Assembly: GCA_041484665.1 (NCBI GenBank)
Contig: JBGPIA010000013.1
Location: 1-64,000, forward strand
Reading direction: 5' to 3'
Source of the DNA: Candidatus Krumholzibacteriia bacterium
GTDB taxonomy: Bacteria > Krumholzibacteriota > Krumholzibacteriia > JAJRXK01
Length of the DNA stretch: 64,000 nucleotides
The notes beneath the pieces were generated by a model. The model saw nothing but the letters and a program-made list of their open reading frames with translations. It was not told the DNA's origin and searched no databases. Each line of letters starts with the position of its first letter. The stretch's first letter is position 1. This document shows positions 45,334-60,402 of this stretch, in pieces. The position numbers and the translations under genes were made by a program.

Positions 45334-47016
45334 TCAGGTTACCGCCCCCTGCGCGAACCATCTCCGTCGGCGCCGATCGAAGTACACCCACAGCCACCCG
45401 GTCTTCTCGGTGCGCACATAGTGGTACTCGCGGTGGATCTCGCGCACCCACCAGCCGCCGGTGACGACGAACGGACCGATCGCCTCCTGCACCGGGCCGC
45501 CTTCCAAGCCAAGGATCATCCAGCCGTCGGGCTCGTTGCGCTGCTGGCGCGAGAGCGCGAGCGGACGCTGCAGCAAGCGGCGGATGAGTGGGCGGTTGAG
45601 CACGACGCGCGGCTTGGCGTCGGGGAGCGCGGACACTGGCGCGCCGCTTTGGCCTGTGCGCACCGGGTCGCCCGATCCTCCTTCCCATACCTCCCATCCG
45701 AACCGCGCCTCCGGCAGGTGCCCGTCGGTGAGCTGCGCGCGCGCGATCGCGCCATCGCCGAACATCGCCCGCAGCCGCGCGAAGGCGCGGCCGGCCGCCG
45801 CCCGGTCGCGCTGCGGGCTCTGGGGAAAGAGCTCGAGCTGGTCGCGGTCCGGGGCGGCGCCCGCCAGCTGCAGCTCGATCCGGGCCACACCCGAGCCCAG
45901 GCCCCCGTTGAGCTGGAGCGCCTCGAGGCGCAAGCGGATCAGTTCGAGCATCTGCCGCAGGTCGCGAGTGGGGCGCGCAGGGTGGAGGTGATGCTCGATG
46001 GTGGAGGTGGCCGTTCCTGGTGCGGCGGGCCCCGCCGGCCGCTCCGCGGCCCGCCCCGCCCCTCGCGGCGCATCCTCCAACCCCAACCGCAGCGCCAACA
46101 TCGCTACCAGCTGCCGCCGCCGCCCCAGCTCCGCGACCAGCTGCCGCAGCAGCTCCTCGATCACGCGCATCAGCCGCTCCAGGTCGGCTTCTGGGTGGTC
46201 GAGGTGCGCTTTCGCTTCGATCGGCTCCTCCGCTGGCTGTGGTTGCAGCGGCGCCCACATCTCCCCCCGCGCGAGCTGCTGCAGCCGGTGCGCCTGCGGG
46301 CCGAAGCGCTCGAGCACCCCGTCGACCGGCAGGTTCAGGAAACCGCCCAGCGTGCTGATGCCCAGCTGGAGCAGGGCGTCGCGCAGCTGCGGCTCGAAGC
46401 CCAGGCGGTCGAGGGGAATGCCGCGAGCGAGCGCGGCCTCCTGCTGGGCGCTCTCCAGTACCAGGACGCCGGGGTGCCAACCTGAGCTGTCCCGACCGCC
46501 GCCCGCGCGTGGCGTAGCGCGTGGCGTGGCGCACGGTGTGGCCCTGGCCAGGGCGTAGGTCCCAAAGCGTGAGAAGCCGACAACCACCGAGCACAGCCAG
46601 CCCTCGCGCGTGAGGTCGTCGTGGATGAGGCGCGCCCAGCGCTCCAAGGATGGGTGCAGCAGCGAGAGCCCGCTGGCGCCCAGCCAGAAGCCTCCGACAT
46701 CCCTCGTCGCAACCTCCGCCGCCTCGACATCTGCCGTATAGAACCGCAGTCGGGCGGCCAGCTCGGTGACGGCCTGGACGATCTCAGCAGCCCCGACGAT
46801 GCCTGCCCGAAGCTCGCGGCACAGCGCCAGTCCCTGGGCGTAGCGCATCCCGGGCAGGATGCGCAGTCGGTAGGCGTGGGCGTTGACCCAGAGGATCAGG
46901 CCCTGCGGCTTGTCACGGTCGATGACCACGGCGGGGTGGGCGCACCAGTCGCGGTTGCGGCGCAGCAGCAACTGCAGCGGCAGGGCGGGAAGGGTGAGGC
47001 AGGCCAGGTGGTCCAT
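45334..47016 (-). CDS. imuB: ImuB (Y-family polymerase-like mutagenesis protein)
   Basis: ACLTLPALPLQ, PGMRYAQGL, QLELF clamp-binding-like motif and GPFVVTGGWW...REYHY...WLWVY C-terminus. Confidence 0.85.
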   Translation of the reverse strand: MDHLACLTLPALPLQLLLRRNRDWCAHPAVVIDRDKPQGLILWVNAHAYRLRILPGMRYAQGLALCRELRAGIVGAAEIVQAVTELAARLRFYTADVEAAEVATRDVGGFWLGASGLSLLHPSLERWARLIHDDLTREGWLCSVVVGFSRFGTYALARATPCATPRATPRAGGGRDSSGWHPGVLVLESAQQEAALARGIPLDRLGFEPQLRDALLQLGISTLGGFLNLPVDGVLERFGPQAHRLQQLARGEMWAPLQPQPAEEPIEAKAHLDHPEADLERLMRVIEELLRQLVAELGRRRQLVAMLALRLGLEDAPRGAGRAAERPAGPAAPGTATSTIEHHLHPARPTRDLRQMLELIRLRLEALQLNGGLGSGVARIELQLAGAAPDRDQLELFPQSPQRDRAAAGRAFARLRAMFGDGAIARAQLTDGHLPEARFGWEVWEGGSGDPVRTGQSGAPVSALPDAKPRVVLNRPLIRRLLQRPLALSRQQRNEPDGWMILGLEGGPVQEAIGPFVVTGGWWVREIHREYHYVRTEKTGWLWVYFDRRRRRWFAQGAVT

Positions 47017-51602: not shown

Positions 51603-52625
51603 TCATTTCTCGATCTTCATCGACTCCAGCGCCGTCGCAAACTCCTTCTCCGATACGTCCGGCCCGCGCTCGGGCCCGCTCATCCCGATGAGGAACACGA
51701 ACGACCCGCGCGGCACGATCCACATCCGCGTCAGCGTGCGGAATTGCAGGCTGTCGCCGGTCGAGAGTGTGTACTTGAACTTAGCGTGGGCGGCCTTCAG
51801 CCCGCAGACTACGGTCTCCTCGATGGGCGTCACCGTCTGGAAATCGGCATACGCGTGCTGGAGCGGCGCCATGGCGCCCTCGAGAAGCTTCGTCGCCGGT
51901 AGGCTGGCCAGGGCCCCGAGCGGCCTCAAACCGACCTGGATGCTCGGATTGAGATCGTCGTACGGCTCGGGATACTTCGTGAAGACGAACAGCGGCGCGC
52001 TCGCGCGCTTCTGGATGGCGTCCTGCAACTCGGCGTCGGAGAGGCGCACCCTTGCCCGGTTCTCCTCCACTTGCTGCAGCGATGCGGTGCTCCAGCCGGC
52101 GGGCCGGACCAGCGAGATCCCGGCCGTCGCGTTGTCGAAGCGCTCACCTCGGGGCTGGGTTGCTGGAGGGGTGGCTGGAGAGGACGGTTGGGCGGACGAC
52201 TGGGCTGGTGGCTGGGCGGACGATTGGGCGGGCGATTGGATGGACCGCTGAGCTGATGGCTGAGGTGATGGGTGGGCGGAGGACTGGGCCCCGTGATGGG
52301 GCACGGCCTGGTCTGAGGATGGAGCCAGTGGTTGGGGTGTAGGTGCATCGGTGGGCGACGCGGCGAACCGAGCGGGCGGCCGCGCCTCCGCTCGATGCGG
52401 CGCTGTGAGCGGCGCGGCTGCGAGCTGGACCGCTCCCGATCGGGTTTCCTGCGCGCGCGCGGTGGAGCCGGGGCCAGTGGGAAGCACAATCGCCACCAGC
52501 GCCGCGAGGGTGGCGAGCGCGGCGATCGCTGCCGACGCAGCGGGCCCGGCGACCGTGCCGGAGCGACGCAAGGCGGCGCGACCGGAGATGGCCCAAGGCG
52601 GGCTCGGGTGTTGGCGCTGCATCAT
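51603..52625 (-). CDS. Secreted hypothetical protein with Q/S/P/A repeat linker
   Basis: Signal/TM segment, 12-bp repeat linker and a globular C-terminal domain (PAGW...[10 protein letters not shown]). Confidence 0.65.
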
Positions 52626-52810
52626 GACCCACCTCGCGAGGCTGCGTGCGATGAGAAGTGCGGGACCTTCCGGGCTCCAGGGTAGCGCCGTGCGCGGGGT
52701 GGGGACAAGGAGCGGGTCGGTGGCGGGTCGGCGGCGAGAGCGCGGCGGCTGCGGAGCTCGGGCCTTGGGAGGACAGCGGTCGCCCAGCGAAAGGTGTCCT
52801 GATTCCCGGG

Positions 52811-52834
52811 ATGTGTCCTGAGATCATGACACAT
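52811..52834. promoter_or_regulatory. Candidate enhancer (UAS) palindrome
   Basis: ATGTGTC-N10-GACACAT lies about 165 bp upstream of a -24/-12 promoter. Confidence 0.5.
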
Positions 52835-52994
52835 GCACAACTCCCTGCGATTGAATTGATTAACCGCGATACGCGGCCGCAGTGCCCGGCCAGCAGTACA
52901 CCCGGGTCAGCCACGACCGACAGTCCACATGCGGTGGTCCGATGTAAGTGACGCATCGACAAGCGATCAGACAGGTGTCCGAGCCCAGCGGTGT

Positions 52995-53011
52995 TGGGCA
53001 TGGCGACTGCT
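52995..53011 (+). promoter_or_regulatory. sigma54 (-24/-12) promoter
   Basis: TGGGCATGGCGACTGCT = GG-N10-GC with GGCATG and TGCT flanks. Confidence 0.55.
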
Positions 53012-53172
53012 TTGTCTGCGGTGGAGCGAATGCCCGGCAGAGGGTGCTGGGCGCATGGTGCGGTGGTGCGACCGCACGCGGATTCTGGCGACTGCCGCAC
53101 GCTGATGCGACCGGTGGGGCCGCGCCCGGGCTGCCGATCAGGAGGCGGATCGAATGCAGCGAGGGCGCGAAT

Positions 53173-53376
53173 CAACTGCGAACGGCCGGATGGAGCGGGG
53201 CGGGGCGACGGGATTACGAGGGGCGACTGCGGACGGCCGGATCGTGCGGTCGCCGAGGTTGGAGGTCGACTGCGGACGGGTAGATCGAACGGGACGCGGC
53301 GACGGGGGCGCCAACTGCGAACGGCCGGTTCGCACCTGCGGTCGGACGGGGCTGCTGGCGGATGCGAACGTCGGCG
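53173..53376 (+). repeat. Spaced array of about 21-bp repeats (CRACTGCGRACGGCCGGATCG)
   Basis: Copies start at 53173, 53224, 53267 and 53312, with a degenerate one near 53359. The period is 43-51 bp. Confidence 0.7.
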
Positions 53377-54009
53377 AGGCCACCGACGATGGGACGCGAG
53401 AGGGCAGGGCGGCGAACGTCCGTGCACTCCGTCAGCCTTGGTTCTGGTCCGGCGGGAGGCGATGAACATCGGGGCCACTCAGCGCCCAACGAATGCGACT
53501 GAACATTGAATGGCGCTCTTCTGACGGCGGCGGCCGGGTCCGGTCTGGACGAACCGCCTTCGTTCTTGGGACGCCTGGCGCCAAGGCCACAGTGGCTGGC
53601 CGTGATTGGATCTAGGACTTTTCCTTAGAATCGTTGCTTGTCCGCGGCTCGCGCCGCGCGACGGGAGGCTCCACAACATCAACGAGTGGACCGAACGCTG
53701 GGGGGCGTCCGGCCTTGCACCATTGTTACCCTCCCGGTGTGCACCCGAAGCACCCGCATTCGAGCGGCCAGTCCCTTGCCAGGCACGGGACCCCTCGCGG
53801 GCGTGGGCCCCCTCTCGTCAGCCGCTTGACAGAGCGCCCCGCTCGCAGGCAAGCTTATTCCGCGCGGTCAGGCTGGACTCGCCACCGCCTGATCCCCTCA
53901 CATCGCCTCCACTCCTGACGGAAAACATGGCGAGACGGGGCCTCCAGCGCCCGGATTTTTGGGCCAGGTTCGACGCGGCTCCGCCTCAGAACGCGATAGG
54001 AGTCGTCCG

Positions 54010-54420
54010 ATGCTCGCTCGCACCGCCTCCCGCTTTGCCGCGCACGCGCCTCTCACGCGCGCCATCGTGTGCCTGGTAGCAGCATTCGTATTGGGCACCA
54101 CATGCGCACCGCAGACGGCCTTGGCCAGTCGTCCACACATGGCGGACGCCTCTGGCGGCATGTACGCCAACGGCGACCCGGACGGAGGCCATGGCAAGCC
54201 ATTTGATCCGGGCGCGACCACTCTCGGGAGAGCGTCGACCGGGCTCGTTGGTGGGGGTGAGATCTCACCGAACACGGCGCGGGTCAATCAGCTCCGACAG
54301 CCGGCGACCGGCGAGACACATCGGCCGGTTGTTTTCAGTCCAGTGTGGGCGCACGCGAGCCGCAGCGGGTTTGTCTCACTCTTGACCTGGCTGGCATCTT
54401 TCGCCCGAAGCTGGAGGTAG
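54010..54420 (+). CDS. Small secreted protein / putative signalling-peptide precursor
   Basis: AGGAG RBS, signal peptide ending TALA and a Gly-rich mature region with NGDPDGG. The last codons carry the GGAGG RBS of the next gene. Confidence 0.6.
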   Translation: MLARTASRFAAHAPLTRAIVCLVAAFVLGTTCAPQTALASRPHMADASGGMYANGDPDGGHGKPFDPGATTLGRASTGLVGGGEISPNTARVNQLRQPATGETHRPVVFSPVWAHASRSGFVSLLTWLASFARSWR

Positions 54421-54423
54421 GCC

Positions 54424-56982
54424 ATGGTTCGTGCCCCACTGCCGAACATCGAGCAACTGGCAGAATTGCATGAGAGGATCGCGGCAAGGGCGGACACGGT
54501 CCGGCCGTCTCCTTCGGCCCCGGTGGAGTTGCTATCGCTCGTTGAGGATCTCCTAAACGCTGGCGCCCCGGAGTTGGCTGGCCAGTTGATCGCAGAGCCA
54601 AACATCCCGCGCCCGAGTTCCGGTTCCGAGGCGGAGTCTCGGGCTCATCTACTTTTCGCACGCGTCCTCTACGAACAGCATCGGTGGGAGGAGTTGTTCT
54701 CGTTCGTGGAGTCGCACGAACGAGACCTGGAGCCTGAAGAGGCCGGACGGGCTTGCGTCCGAGCTGCCTGGGCTGCGCTCCTCTCAGGTGACGTGGCTCG
54801 CTGCAGCGAGTACGTGCACCGCACGATAGCGCACCAAGTTTCGGCTCGGTCCTTAGCCATCGCTGCAGATCTCGGCTTTTTGGGCGGCTACCGAGCCGCG
54901 CACACGGGTGGGGCGATCATTGAAGCCAAGCGTGAAGTCGAAACCGCGATCGCGCTGTATCGCCACGCGGGTGAGTCCCATTATCTGATTCGCGCGCTGC
55001 TACTTGGGGCAGCATTAGAACTAAGGCTCGGCAAGCTGGAGAGCAGCACTTCCTACGGACTCGAGGCTCTGGAAATTGCGGCGTCCAAAGGTAACGTATC
55101 CGAATCGGTTGGGGCGCTTGGAATCCTTGCAATCGTGCAATACCGGCAGGCGGCGTTTGACCAAGCGATCGAAACGATCGAGCGGGCGAATCGACTCTGC
55201 GTGTTGTTTCCAGGGCTCTTACGAAGTCACCAAGTAGGTCTTCTTGATGCTCGCGTGCAGCTCTTTCTTGGGAATTTGGACGCTGCGCGCTCTCGACTCG
55301 CCGATGTGGCGGAAACTCTCCGCGGTGCACCGAGCACCACGTCCTCAAGCCTAGTTGCGGAATACAACGGGTTAGCGTCCCTGCAGGCAGGTGACCCAAC
55401 GCGCGCGATGCAAGATTTTCGCGAGGCGGAAAACATTCTGAAGACTAGCTCTTATGACTCGTACTATGCGGCCGAGATACTTCTGCGCCAAGCGGAAGCG
55501 TCGTTAGAGTTGGGAGCCTACGAGGGTGCGCGAGACCTCGCCGGCCGCGCGCTCGCGATGAGCCGAGCTAGAGGGATCGAGCTGGAAGTCGGCCATATAC
55601 TCCGGGTGGACGCCCTGGCGAGGTGGTTCTTGGGAGACGGACAGGGAGCGCGTGCTACCTTGCGTGACGCCGAATCCCACCTCCGCCACATCGGCGACCT
55701 GTACGAAGTCGGCCGCGTCCTCCTTGCTCGAGCCGAGTTCCTGGCCGAGACGCCCGGGGCCGCCGTGGCTGCGGCTGCCGAGGCTCTGAACCTCTTCGAG
55801 CGCATGGGCGTGATCCACCTCGCCGACCGCGCGCGCGACCTGCTGGCGATCTCGCAGGTGCGCCAGCGCGCGGCGCAGGCGCACGCCGAGCACGCCCCCG
55901 ATCTGGATCAGTCCCGCTCGAACGACCCAGCGCGCTCGGCGCGAACGACCTCGGACGCTGCGGCTGCCCTCACGCCATCCACCACGCCGGCCATTGCGCC
56001 ATCCACCACGCCATCTCCCGCATTCGACCCGATCATCGACCTCTCGACCGGCCCCATCGTAGCCGCCTCCCCCGCCACGCGGGAAGTGCTCGCCAAAGCC
56101 AGGACCATCGCTCCCCACCCCGGCTCCGTCCTCCTCACCGGTGAGACCGGCGTCGGCAAGGACATCATCGCGCGCTTCATCCACGACCACAGCGCGCGCG
56201 CCGGGAGCGAGTTCGTCCCTGTCAACTGCGCCGCGATCCCCGACACGCTCTTCGAGCGCGAGCTGTTCGGACACGCCCGCGGCTCGTTCACCGGCGCCGA
56301 CCGCACGTCGCCGGGGCTCGTCGAGTACGCCAACGGCGGTACGCTGTTCCTCGATGAGATCGGCGAGCTGCCCATGCCCCTGCAGGCCAAGCTGCTGCGC
56401 CTGCTACAGGACGGCTCATTCCGGCGCGTCGGCGAGGCCCAGGAGCGCAAGGTGGACGTGCGCGTGATTGCCGCGACCAATCGCGATCTGGGTGGGCAGA
56501 TCTCCCAGAAGATCTTCCGCGAGGACCTCTGGTTCCGGCTGTCGCTGTTCGAGCTCGAGATCCCGCCGCTGCGGGCGCGCTCCGAGGATGTCATCCCACT
56601 CGTCCACTTCTTCCTGGAGCGCGAGAGCCGGCGCCTGCGCAACACTTTCTGGATGACCAAGGATGCGTGGCAGCTTATCAAGCGCTATGGCTGGCCGGGC
56701 AACGTGCGCGAGCTGGAGTCGGCGATCGTGAGCTCGACCGCGCAAGCGGGCAAGGACGGCTGCGTGCACACCGAGCACCTCCCGCGCTCGCTGCGCGGGA
56801 TGGGCAGCATCCCAACGTCGGTGACCCTCGACCTCACCAAGCATCTGGAGAACGAGGAGCGCCGCATGATCCTGCTGGCGCTGCAGCGCTCTCGCCAGAG
56901 CAAGGCCGAGGCGGCACGCTATCTGGGCATCAGCCGCAATTCGCTCTACGACAAGCTGAAACGGTTGGGAATCGAGGACTGA
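54424..56982 (+). CDS. sigma54-dependent activator (TPR-like helical N-terminus, AAA+, Fis HTH)
   Basis: GETGVGKD, ELFGHARGSFTGA, LFLDEIGE, WPGNVREL and C-terminal HTH. There is no receiver domain. Confidence 0.92.
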   Translation: MVRAPLPNIEQLAELHERIAARADTVRPSPSAPVELLSLVEDLLNAGAPELAGQLIAEPNIPRPSSGSEAESRAHLLFARVLYEQHRWEELFSFVESHERDLEPEEAGRACVRAAWAALLSGDVARCSEYVHRTIAHQVSARSLAIAADLGFLGGYRAAHTGGAIIEAKREVETAIALYRHAGESHYLIRALLLGAALELRLGKLESSTSYGLEALEIAASKGNVSESVGALGILAIVQYRQAAFDQAIETIERANRLCVLFPGLLRSHQVGLLDARVQLFLGNLDAARSRLADVAETLRGAPSTTSSSLVAEYNGLASLQAGDPTRAMQDFREAENILKTSSYDSYYAAEILLRQAEASLELGAYEGARDLAGRALAMSRARGIELEVGHILRVDALARWFLGDGQGARATLRDAESHLRHIGDLYEVGRVLLARAEFLAETPGAAVAAAAEALNLFERMGVIHLADRARDLLAISQVRQRAAQAHAEHAPDLDQSRSNDPARSARTTSDAAAALTPSTTPAIAPSTTPSPAFDPIIDLSTGPIVAASPATREVLAKARTIAPHPGSVLLTGETGVGKDIIARFIHDHSARAGSEFVPVNCAAIPDTLFERELFGHARGSFTGADRTSPGLVEYANGGTLFLDEIGELPMPLQAKLLRLLQDGSFRRVGEAQERKVDVRVIAATNRDLGGQISQKIFREDLWFRLSLFELEIPPLRARSEDVIPLVHFFLERESRRLRNTFWMTKDAWQLIKRYGWPGNVRELESAIVSSTAQAGKDGCVHTEHLPRSLRGMGSIPTSVTLDLTKHLENEERRMILLALQRSRQSKAEAARYLGISRNSLYDKLKRLGIED

Positions 56983-57177: not shown

Positions 57178-58107
57178 TCACGTCAATCCCTCCGGGCCCC
57201 TGCAGATCTCCTGGTGCCTCCACCCCGGCCCGCGCCGCTTGTCCTTGGTGACGACCAGCTCGCAGACGAACCGCTGCCCTTCGGCGCGGCGCACGCTGCC
57301 CTCGGCGCGCAGCGAGATGAGTGAACCCAGCCCAGTCCGCTCACCCTTGGTCAGGAACAGCAGCACCGCGTTGTGCTTCTTCACCAGCCCCGCCAACCGC
57401 GTGAGCGCGGGCTGCGTGACCTGTCCCCGTGGACCCTGCGCGCCCGCCGCCGCGAGATCCATCACCACCAGCCCGAACGCCCCGCTGCGCAGGAGCTGAT
57501 CGGCCGCGCGGGCCGCATTGGCAGCATTGGCGGCATTGGCTGCACTGGCAGCATTGGCTGCGCTGGCAGCGCCGGCCGCACCCGAGCTGCCGTTCAGGCG
57601 CACCACGGGCAACGCCGCCAGGTCGATCCCCCACGCTGCCATGTCGGGCGGGAAGAAGGTCGACCCGCCAACGGCGATCCACGCCACGGGCTGTCCACGA
57701 TGTTGGGCGTCGAGCACCAGCGAGGCCGCGAACGTCAGCAGCGGCGTCTGCCCGAAGCTGACGAGCTCGCACAGCCGGCCGCTGAGGGCGTCGAGGCTCC
57801 AGGACTTGCCACGGCCGGTGTCGGGTCGGGTGTCAGGTCTGACGTCAGGTCGGGTGTTTGGTCTGGCGTCGAGTCGAGTGTCGGGCCTGGCGTCGGGTCT
57901 GGCGTCAGGACTGATGCCAGAACGAGCGCCGGGCATGGCGTCGGAGCCGGCGCCGCGCCGAATGCCCGGCCAATCGTCAATCTGGCCATCCGGCTGGGGT
58001 AGAAGCTCGCCCTGGACCTTGCGCAGCACCTCGATGCTGCCCGCCGGCAAGGCGGAGGCCAGGGAGTCCGCGAGGGACTCGACGAACGAACGGGCGGCGC
58101 TTTCCAT
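57178..58107 (-). CDS. imuA: ImuA (RecA-like mutagenesis protein)
   Basis: LSGRLCEL, VAWI...FFPPD, LLRSGAFGLVVMD and LGSLISLR motifs. There is no canonical Walker A. It is near lexA and has the shared promoter box. Confidence 0.8.
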   Translation of the reverse strand: MESAARSFVESLADSLASALPAGSIEVLRKVQGELLPQPDGQIDDWPGIRRGAGSDAMPGARSGISPDARPDARPDTRLDARPNTRPDVRPDTRPDTGRGKSWSLDALSGRLCELVSFGQTPLLTFAASLVLDAQHRGQPVAWIAVGGSTFFPPDMAAWGIDLAALPVVRLNGSSGAAGAASAANAASAANAANAANAARAADQLLRSGAFGLVVMDLAAAGAQGPRGQVTQPALTRLAGLVKKHNAVLLFLTKGERTGLGSLISLRAEGSVRRAEGQRFVCELVVTKDKRRGPGWRHQEICRGPEGLT

Positions 58108-58181
58108 GAGAACGCGCTCCGGTGCGGAGCCCACGGGGACCCGGGGGACCCGGGCGGTGCGTGGGGCGTCATGGCGTTCTC

Positions 58182-59784: not shown

Positions 59785-60402
59785 TCAGCGCGGCGCGCTC
59801 TCCAGGTACCGCCGGACCTCGATGACTTTGCCGAGGATCGTGCAGCTCTCGGGGACGATTGTGTCGTACGCGGCATTGGCCGGCTGGAGGTGGACCTTGC
59901 CGCGCCGCACGCGCAAAGTCTTGACCGTGGCCTCGTCGCCCACCAACGCAACGACGATGTCGCCGGACCGGGCGGCGCGCTGCGCGCGCACGATCACGAT
60001 GTCGCCCGGCAGGATCCCCACTCCGGTCATGCTCTCGCCACGCACGCGCAGCCCGAACACCTCGTCGTCGCTTGCACGGGTCTGGACCGGGACGTAGCCC
60101 TCCAGATCCTCGACGGCTGCCGACAGCCCGCCGGCCTGAACGCGGCCCAGCACCGGAACCAGGCGCGTCCCGCGTGGCTGGAACGGCCCCGGCAGACGGT
60201 AGCCCCGGGACTTGCCCTGTTCCTTGGTGAGGCGACCTTCCTCGACGAGCCGCGTGAGATGGGTCGCGGCGGTCTGCACTGCGCGGAAGCCCATGGCTTT
60301 CTGGACTTCGCGCACGGTGGGCGGGCGGCCCTGCATCAGGCGCTGGTGGATGAAGCGGTAGACCCGATTACGGGTCTCGCCGGGTGGGGTGATAGGTGAC
60401 AC
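59785..60402 (-). CDS. lexA: LexA repressor
   Basis: PPTVREV HTH, VQAG cleavage site, GESM (Ser) and TVK (Lys). Confidence 0.95.
   Translation of the reverse strand: MSPITPPGETRNRVYRFIHQRLMQGRPPTVREVQKAMGFRAVQTAATHLTRLVEEGRLTKEQGKSRGYRLPGPFQPRGTRLVPVLGRVQAGGLSAAVEDLEGYVPVQTRASDDEVFGLRVRGESMTGVGILPGDIVIVRAQRAARSGDIVVALVGDEATVKTLRVRRGKVHLQPANAAYDTIVPESCTILGKVIEVRRYLESAPR

Follow-up and report, generated by a model that had tools for sequence, protein, structure and literature searches.

The 64,000-nt stretch of contig JBGPIA010000013.1 (assembly GCA_041484665.1) of a Candidatus Krumholzibacteriia bacterium, hereafter the window, carries a two-gene locus encoding a small, probably exported protein and a sigma-54 activator with a tetratricopeptide repeat (TPR) sensor. 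The host appears to be a diderm member of Krumholzibacteriota. Its genome (5.45 Mb, 93.65% complete) contains RpoN, 27 sigma-54 AAA domains, three SBP_bac_5 proteins (Opp/Dpp-type binding proteins), seven TonB receptors, and CsrA. The first open reading frame (ORF) of the locus is a candidate propeptide gene (54010-54420, + strand), which encodes 136 aa and carries GGMYANGDPDGGHG. Its product comprises a predicted Sec signal (approximately aa 1-39), whose hydrophobic stretch ends with A-L-A, a GDPDGG core (aa 55-60; nt 54172-54189, + strand), a linker, and an aromatic amphipathic C-terminal tail. A gap of 3 nt separates its stop codon from the activator ATG (54424), and a GGAGG is located at 54413-54417; the 136-aa signal-peptide ORF claimed directly before the activator in the original prediction was thus borne out.

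The activator (852 aa, 54424-56982, + strand) consists of a TPR/SUPR-like sensor domain (aa 1-480; 54424-55863, + strand), delimited using Pfam, a fold model, and the G+C content at third codon positions (GC3), and an AAA+ sigma-54 interaction domain with a lid and a Fis-type helix-turn-helix (HTH) (56056-56982, + strand), delimited using Pfam and GC3. The Pfam matches were Sigma54_activat (residues 545-711, E 1.4e-64), the AAA lid, and HTH_8 (808-848), and no receiver or GAF families were among them. A TPR_MalT match (residues 113-416) reached 38.8 bits, below the family cut-off of 45. The sigma-54-contact loop is a GSFTGA variant, with GAFTGA or GAYTGA at this place in the six closest relatives; together with Walker A, the Fis HTH, and RpoN in the genome, these features identify a sigma-54 enhancer-binding protein. 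The small ORF had no family match in Pfam and NCBIfam, and a word-index protein search returned only the small ORF itself. The same search with the TPR region retrieved one same-sequence fragment, and a sensor profile retrieved mostly generic TPR proteins. Proteins in the ESM Atlas that resemble the small one scored 0.86-0.88 and come mostly from Eiseniibacteriota where the lineage is known; they are taken as a lead only.

To evaluate the pairing of the two genes across the class, a profile was built from 17 sensors; it matched 201/201 genomes, generic TPR proteins included. The 140 loci fetched yielded 115 distinct ORFs with both TPR and AAA matches; after removal of 4 that were below 100 bits and 3 that had less than 700 nt upstream, 108 loci were left. 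The upstream ORF was picked by hydrophobicity and not by motif (80-160 aa, a signal-like N-terminus, and an end beside the activator start). Such an ORF lies directly upstream in 105 of the 108 loci, as was expected of homologous activators, the signals being predicted. A G[DEN]P-type pattern was present in 95/105 of these ORFs. Since this pattern had been written after viewing the loci, it was retested on new loci with the rule fixed, and the upstream ORF was found in 31/32 and the motif in 30/31; these held-out loci (14 partial ones skipped, 5/32 cut before the AAA domain) all belong to one family and hence are not independent. Among the controls in this genome, a signal-like upstream ORF was detected for 1 of 25 other sigma-54 activators (a transporter-like ORF without the motif) and 0 of 9 other TPR proteins, and the motif background was 29/688 signal-like ORFs. 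The class motifs had 19 six-frame matches in the genome, and the only short signal-bearing ORFs among them were the two preceding TPR activators. The small ORF and the activator overlap by 11 nt in 41/92 loci.

The second pair of this genome (L067, G000:C3:253168-256727, - strand) comprises a longer-type TPR sigma-54 activator of about 1030 aa and an upstream signal ORF of 114 aa with GDPGG and GDPDD; strong -24/-12 sites are located 200 and 890 nt downstream. Orphan or broken members were observed across L104, L107, L018 (G006), L015 (G032), and L254, the defects being precursor-less activators, a frameshifted activator, an in-frame sensor stop, and an interrupted precursor. In L015 and L254, both counted as lacking the pairing, the upstream ORF is present and one gene of the pair is broken.

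The precursors of the family are 97-145 aa long (median 120). According to sequence heuristics (not SignalP), 97 of the 105 have a K/R n-region, 94 a small-x-A site, one a lipobox, and none a Tat signal, so that the signals look to be of the Sec/signal peptidase I type. Each motif class has a conserved island of 8-11 residues with variable flanks, namely EGDPLDxND, EGDPGDGVL, EPGEDPHL, and GEPGHDPF, and, in the clade of the window, SGDPxGGE (7 members, all of its family). On the sensor tree (FastTree; long-branch warnings included the row of the window), the motif classes required 11 changes versus 54.8 after shuffling. The ratio of nonsynonymous to synonymous substitution rates (dN/dS) in 15 close pairs was 0.07 for the island, partly defined by conservation itself, and 0.36-0.59 elsewhere. 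The conservation of the motif anticipated in the original prediction is therefore supported by its presence in 95/105 precursors and by the island dN/dS. In 20 sister pairs, the mean identity was 0.88 for the motif, 0.85 for AAA, 0.73 and 0.69 for the sensor halves, 0.54 for the tail, and 0.47 for the signal.

The hydrophobic/amphipathic tail is kept across the family, including a duplicate precursor in G002 that does not abut an activator. It might point to a membrane-associated partner, in which the mature protein, held on the inner membrane by its tail, acts as an anti-activator or relay, or in which cleavage at G[DE]P frees the tail as the true ligand; D-P bonds act as cleavage sites in other systems. 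However, a 19-residue hydrophobicity of 1.6 is reached by only 15/105 tails, constraint is weakest in the tail (dN/dS 0.59), and many motifs have E-P or N-P where others have D-P, so this explanation seems quite unlikely. Most tails were judged not to be transmembrane anchors, since so few are hydrophobic enough to span the membrane. An arrest-peptide reading was also rejected, since the conserved motif lies 37-100 aa ahead of the stop; SecM and VemP are peptides of that type. The duplicate in G002 (L062) is a tandem second precursor about 600 nt upstream of the activator, with an identical SGDPDGG core and a hydrophobic tail, and its coding sequence contains a perfect enhancer-type palindrome.

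The N-terminal 480 aa of the activator were modeled as an all-helical TPR solenoid (predicted local distance difference test, pLDDT, 92.3; predicted template modeling score, pTM, 0.92), which, with the lack of receiver or GAF matches, bears out the claim that TPR-like repeats of about 480 aa replace those domains. The model was compared with 48,161 chains. The top match was MalT domain III (SUPR; PDB 1hz4) with Z 28.3, a root-mean-square deviation (rmsd) of 3.9, and 359 aligned residues. Human APPBP2 with an RxxGP degron had Z 25.6, and the peptide receptors of the RRNPP group followed: a phage Rap with peptide (Z 25.2, rmsd 4.6, 338 aligned), AimR (Z 24.5, rmsd 3.5, 328 aligned), and NprR-NprX (Z 23.5, rmsd 5.2, 339 aligned). 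Sharing a fold by itself says nothing on function. When the TPR domain was modeled in complex with a motif fragment of 40 residues, the ipSAE values were 0.01 and 0.02 against a mark of 0.32, which gives no verdict for or against binding.

MalT is a STAND/LuxR sigma-70 activator that senses maltotriose. The sensor resembles it in the best structural match and the weak TPR_MalT match, but the activator has no STAND domain, a sigma-54 AAA+ domain and a Fis HTH take the place of the LuxR HTH, and MalT has no paired exported ORF. If the SUPR/TPR domain bound a small molecule or another protein, as MalT does, the small ORF would be a co-expressed exported product and not the ligand. That MalT provides the best fold match and the best Pfam TPR family, and that two activators of one genus have no intact small ORF, would suit such a sensor; it is nevertheless very unlikely in view of the near-obligate pairing, the absence of an upstream ORF ahead of other activators, and the strong selection on a short island within a small protein that is otherwise of low complexity.

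The GC3 value was 0.73 for the small ORF, 0.57-0.72 for sensor aa 1-420, 0.80-0.95 for the remainder of the activator (0.83-0.95 for the AAA+, lid, and HTH part), and 0.81-0.91 for the neighbor genes. Across the family, the TPR part was below the AAA part by more than 0.1 in 15/88 loci, and the reverse was observed in one. This step suggests that the precursor and sensor arrived jointly onto a resident output module, and, by this analysis, the propeptide and sensor likely travel between lineages as one cassette that is joined to a resident AAA-HTH module, a behavior known for signal-receptor pairs.

The region upstream of the operon contains an enhancer-promoter element. Tandem upstream activator sites (UAS), recognized by genome matches, are located at 52794-52834 (+ strand), an imperfect TGTCC-N8-GGACA type being followed by a TGTGTC-N10-GACACA palindrome, the one originally noticed (52811-52834). 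Downstream are an AT-rich stretch (52850-52863), only loosely kept among paralogous copies; a third, weaker activator-type site (52883-52900, + strand), about 90 nt past the first and aligned in paralogues; and a box (52943-52963, + strand) between enhancer and promoter, which is kept in several paralogous copies and may be integration host factor (IHF)-like. Activator-site pairs 91-92 nt apart were also found in G001 and G003. The sigma-54 -24/-12 promoter occupies 52996-53011 (+ strand; GG 52997-8, GC 53009-10), with a probable start at about 53023. Taken alone it is modest, having 9/12 consensus letters at a genome density of such sites of 0.65/kb; on a lineage matrix it reached 11.8 bits, and sites of at least 10 bits occur at 0.076/kb. 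The UAS pattern had 7 matches in the genome, with a -24/-12 site at 136-217 nt in 7/7 and at 196-199 nt in 5. As part of this repeated UAS-promoter element, the promoter is well beyond chance.

The probable start lies about 990 nt ahead of the small ORF, with a repeat-bearing, likely non-coding stretch between them. A likely non-coding sigma-54 transcript (53023-53430, + strand) contains six GCG[A/G]ACG boxes at intervals of 43-51 nt. A look-up of RNA runs for the locus returned none, which bears in neither direction on expression. The possibility that 53154-53465 encodes a protein (103 aa, with a good Shine-Dalgarno sequence) was set aside because the boxes are in different frames and the 43-nt spacings break the frame. 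A TTGACA hexamer at 53826-53831 (+ strand) may belong to a separate housekeeping promoter of the operon; as no full sigma-70 consensus was found, it is a lead only. Thus, the palindrome, AT-rich stretch, and -24/-12 promoter assigned to the operon as its own are all present, but they are not private to it; the promoter is on the same strand as the operon, yet it sits about 1 kb upstream and is one of 7-9 dispersed copies.

Further copies of the unit in this genome (G000) are located at C13:125761(-), C15:92063(-), C30:28865(+), C43:1649(-), C5:144403(-), C7:47690(-), C4:237690(+), and C26:34620(-); those on C4 and C26 are degenerate and were found via the boxes. All of these copies except C43 have boxes within 620 nt. 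Over 620 nt past the promoters, GCG[A/G]ACG occurred 37 times on the transcribed strand and 0 times on the opposite one, where about 2.3 would be expected; among the copies chosen by UAS, 7 in number, the counts were 27 versus 0 (about 1.8 expected), none of them in C43. Among the copies listed, the flanking genes differ, and the next gene is convergent in several. The boxes frequently occupy the tips of predicted hairpins (mean unpaired 0.59 vs 0.36), but the whole fold of the repeat stretch in the window was no better than shuffles (z -0.81), and this stretch had no Rfam match. In this genome, the boxes are enriched relative to the control (37 vs 15). Boxes also cluster where no enhancer was detected: 11 of them lie at C14:225-748, at the contig edge, and other clusters are at C14:63495-63689, with a 60-nt period, and at C8:183334. 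Judging by these sequence features, the unit copies are likely non-coding sigma-54 transcripts, with a DNA repeat as the alternative.

Under that alternative, the upstream element would be only a dispersed repeat (a repetitive extragenic palindrome-like sequence or a duplicated promoter fragment) read by another sigma-54 activator and adjacent to the operon by chance. The boxes are largely confined to this genome, some clusters (C14:63495, C8) have no enhancer, there is no fold signal, G008 has units with no activator found, and the genome encodes 26 other sigma-54 AAA domains. On the other side, the enhancer type is found upstream of the operon in half of the family relatives and is family-restricted like the activator clade, and every box in the 7 UAS-chosen copies lies on the transcribed strand (27 vs 0 against about 1.8 expected). 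We consider this explanation somewhat unlikely.

A TGT[CA]C-N8-G[GT]ACA site is located upstream of the operon in 3/6 family relatives, and a same-strand -24/-12 site within 340 nt of the small ORF in 2/6 (L061 and L065). The exact enhancer pattern, built from G000, G002, and G003, was present in 7/9 same-family genomes (5/7 without those) versus 6/51 others. A promoter was found near 5/18 fetched perfect palindromes versus 19/539 background windows. Lipoprotein-like ORFs follow the enhancer-promoter in L188 (G003), L205 (G008), and, with an imperfect site, L201 (G009). These ORFs, directly behind the enhancer and sigma-54 site, have 170-250 aa, and a further such case is L202 (G006), where the sigma-54 site is weak (5.9 bits). 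From their position, the lipoprotein-like ORFs are candidate regulon members in the relatives. Across the wider family, most of the adjacent promoters, on which the promoter matrix was trained, are divergent and located at -300 to -600 in the short type, or lie 200-340 nt downstream in the long type, and in 25/39 no ORF with a ribosome site follows within 450 nt. An operon-facing promoter is therefore not the rule there. As the + strand showed no T-tailed terminator, and 2/6 relatives have a near same-strand -24/-12 site, autoinduction by read-through is possible. In this genome, the activator likely switches on about nine scattered repeat-bearing, probably non-coding transcripts, to judge from the sequence.

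Five criteria are given for RRNPP systems in the accessible text of PMC10075063: a propeptide of 10-100 aa, secreted by Sec, and a receptor of 250-500 aa with TPRs, encoded by adjacent genes. The same text presents cytoplasmic peptide receptors as characteristic of Gram-positive Bacillota. The extended RRNPP(A) group, found in Bacillota and their phages, includes Rap-Phr, NprR-NprX, PlcR-PapR, and AimR-AimP, with the mechanism outlined in the available part of PMC9765709. The locus of the window shares the gene adjacency (3-nt gap), the TPRs of the receptor (by the model), and, by the heuristics used, Sec secretion. It also shares a short conserved core that varies by receptor clade and a TPR fold near Rap, AimR, and NprR. 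It differs in its diderm host; in a longer, upstream-placed precursor with a hydrophobic tail and an acidic G[DE]P core; and in a TPR domain N-terminal to a sigma-54 AAA+ domain with a C-terminal Fis HTH. Both size limits are exceeded, the precursor having 136 aa (97-145 aa in the family) and the receptor 852 aa (about 800-1045 aa in the family; the TPR part alone about 480 aa), and therefore the pair would be RRNPP-like in its working but is not filed as a member.

Since a presumably exported small protein with a motif adjoins an activator whose sensor has a predicted pheromone-receptor-like fold, the pair is likely a peptide-signaling circuit. An RRNPP-like circuit with sigma-54 output is the best reading, and we hold it with roughly an even chance of being right. 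The conserved upstream signal ORF and motif and the RRNPP-like TPR fold sustain this part of the original prediction, but not the UAS and promoter private to the operon. In such a circuit, the product of the small ORF would be exported by Sec and presumably processed, around GDPDGG, into a short acidic peptide. After crossing the outer membrane, or staying inside it, the peptide may re-enter via Opp/Dpp-type uptake and bind the neighboring activator at its TPR sensor, with an effect of either sign. The activator would then control sigma-54 transcription from the family-specific enhancer, if the two are correctly matched. The outputs of the enhancer would be the 7-9 scattered, probably non-coding transcripts, including the copy immediately ahead of the operon; these transcripts might act as RNAs.

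A number of observations weigh against this reading. Both size limits are exceeded, MalT domain III outranks the RRNPP receptors, and APPBP2 and generic TPRs score nearby. The activators L104 and L107 of one genus have no intact upstream ORF. The motif classes follow the sensor clades, which linkage alone would also produce, and the expected peptide/TPR co-variation did not reach significance: neither the motif nor the tail showed a significant rate correlation with either sensor half in the 20 independent sister pairs (motif-sensor rho 0.24-0.37, p 0.10-0.31). A diffusible-peptide model does not account for the kept hydrophobic tail. Enhancer-promoter units are present in G008 (97% complete), and an orthologous activator was not found there; the box enrichment is not clear in 60 relatives. 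Finally, no processing protease or transporter was detected as a conserved neighbor across families in the 18 of 40 recurring neighbor clusters scanned.

This last result would be expected if the pair monitored export or the envelope within one cell, the motif binding the TPR sensor only when the precursor stays unexported, or ahead of its export, so that the activator would read the capacity of Sec or stress on the envelope and not cell density. The peptide would not need to return across a diderm envelope, and the tight gene coupling (the 11-nt overlaps) and the enhancer-promoter before lipoprotein-like ORFs in L188, L201, and L205 agree with such a role. It offers no obvious need for many clade-specific motif classes, which look like specificity codes, or for the apparent cassette swapping, and an export monitor is accordingly judged unlikely.

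Regarding the output, one Qrr copy of Vibrio lies beside the activator gene. A comparable arrangement is predicted here, with a signaling sigma-54 activator, several scattered non-coding transcripts, and one copy beside the activator gene. According to the accessible portions of PMC2632942, PMC10162802, and PMC8043402, the Vibrio sigma-54 activator LuxO drives several scattered, partly redundant Qrr small RNAs. The system described here differs in its TPR sensor input in place of a phosphorelay receiver, no receiver family being found, and in transcripts of about 400 nt with repeated boxes and no Rfam match; Hfq was not found with PF17209 in the 93.65% complete genome. CsrB/RsmZ and CrcZ are sponge RNAs, the former with GGA repeated in hairpin loops and the latter being sigma-54 driven. 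The predicted transcripts resemble them in that short boxes recur every 43-51 nt, frequently at the tips of predicted hairpins, and CsrA is present; they differ in a GCGAACG core, with GGA in a minority of boxes, and no binding protein was identified.

A broader version of the peptide-circuit reading may tentatively be proposed, namely class-wide diderm peptide quorum sensing with an RRNPP-type receptor on sigma-54, pherotype cassettes, and about nine sponge-type RNAs, one of which feeds the operon. The pherotypes would be GDPxGG, GDPLDxND, GDPGDGVL, EPGEDPHL, and GEPGHDPF, and the RNA hairpin tips would display GCGAAC. If true, peptide communication with internal receptors would extend across an uncultured diderm class via sigma-54 activators, with a sensing input for which no description was found in the open-access literature. 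No description of the pair was found there either, including the accessible parts of PMC12316311 and PMC13443453; the RRNPP_detector supplements could list such pairs. The limits of this detector, as given in the available text of PMC10075063 (at most 100 aa for the propeptide and 500 aa for the receptor), mean that such pairs would be skipped. The enhancer provides a first candidate regulon, consisting of repeat-bearing transcripts here and lipoprotein genes in relatives. The peptide-circuit reading is directly testable with short motif peptides, and the positions of the enhancer and promoter are given at single-base resolution.

Among the neighboring genes, a divergent 340-aa ORF (51603-52625, - strand) has an N-terminal hydrophobic stretch, Pro/Ser/Gln repeats, and no Pfam family, and shares the intergenic region with the enhancer. 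LexA was identified by Pfam among the ORFs 45334-47016, 57178-58134, and 59785-60402 (all - strand); the remaining ones of this set had no Pfam match and, as we presume, resemble ImuA and ImuB, whose genes are usually adjacent. If this resemblance holds, about 10 kb including the activator locus would lie between them, a hint of insertion. Two recurring neighbor families of the TPR activators have no Pfam assignment: the L074:4460-5317 cluster was found in 11 genera, mostly downstream and on the same strand, and the L115:8503 cluster in 14 genera.

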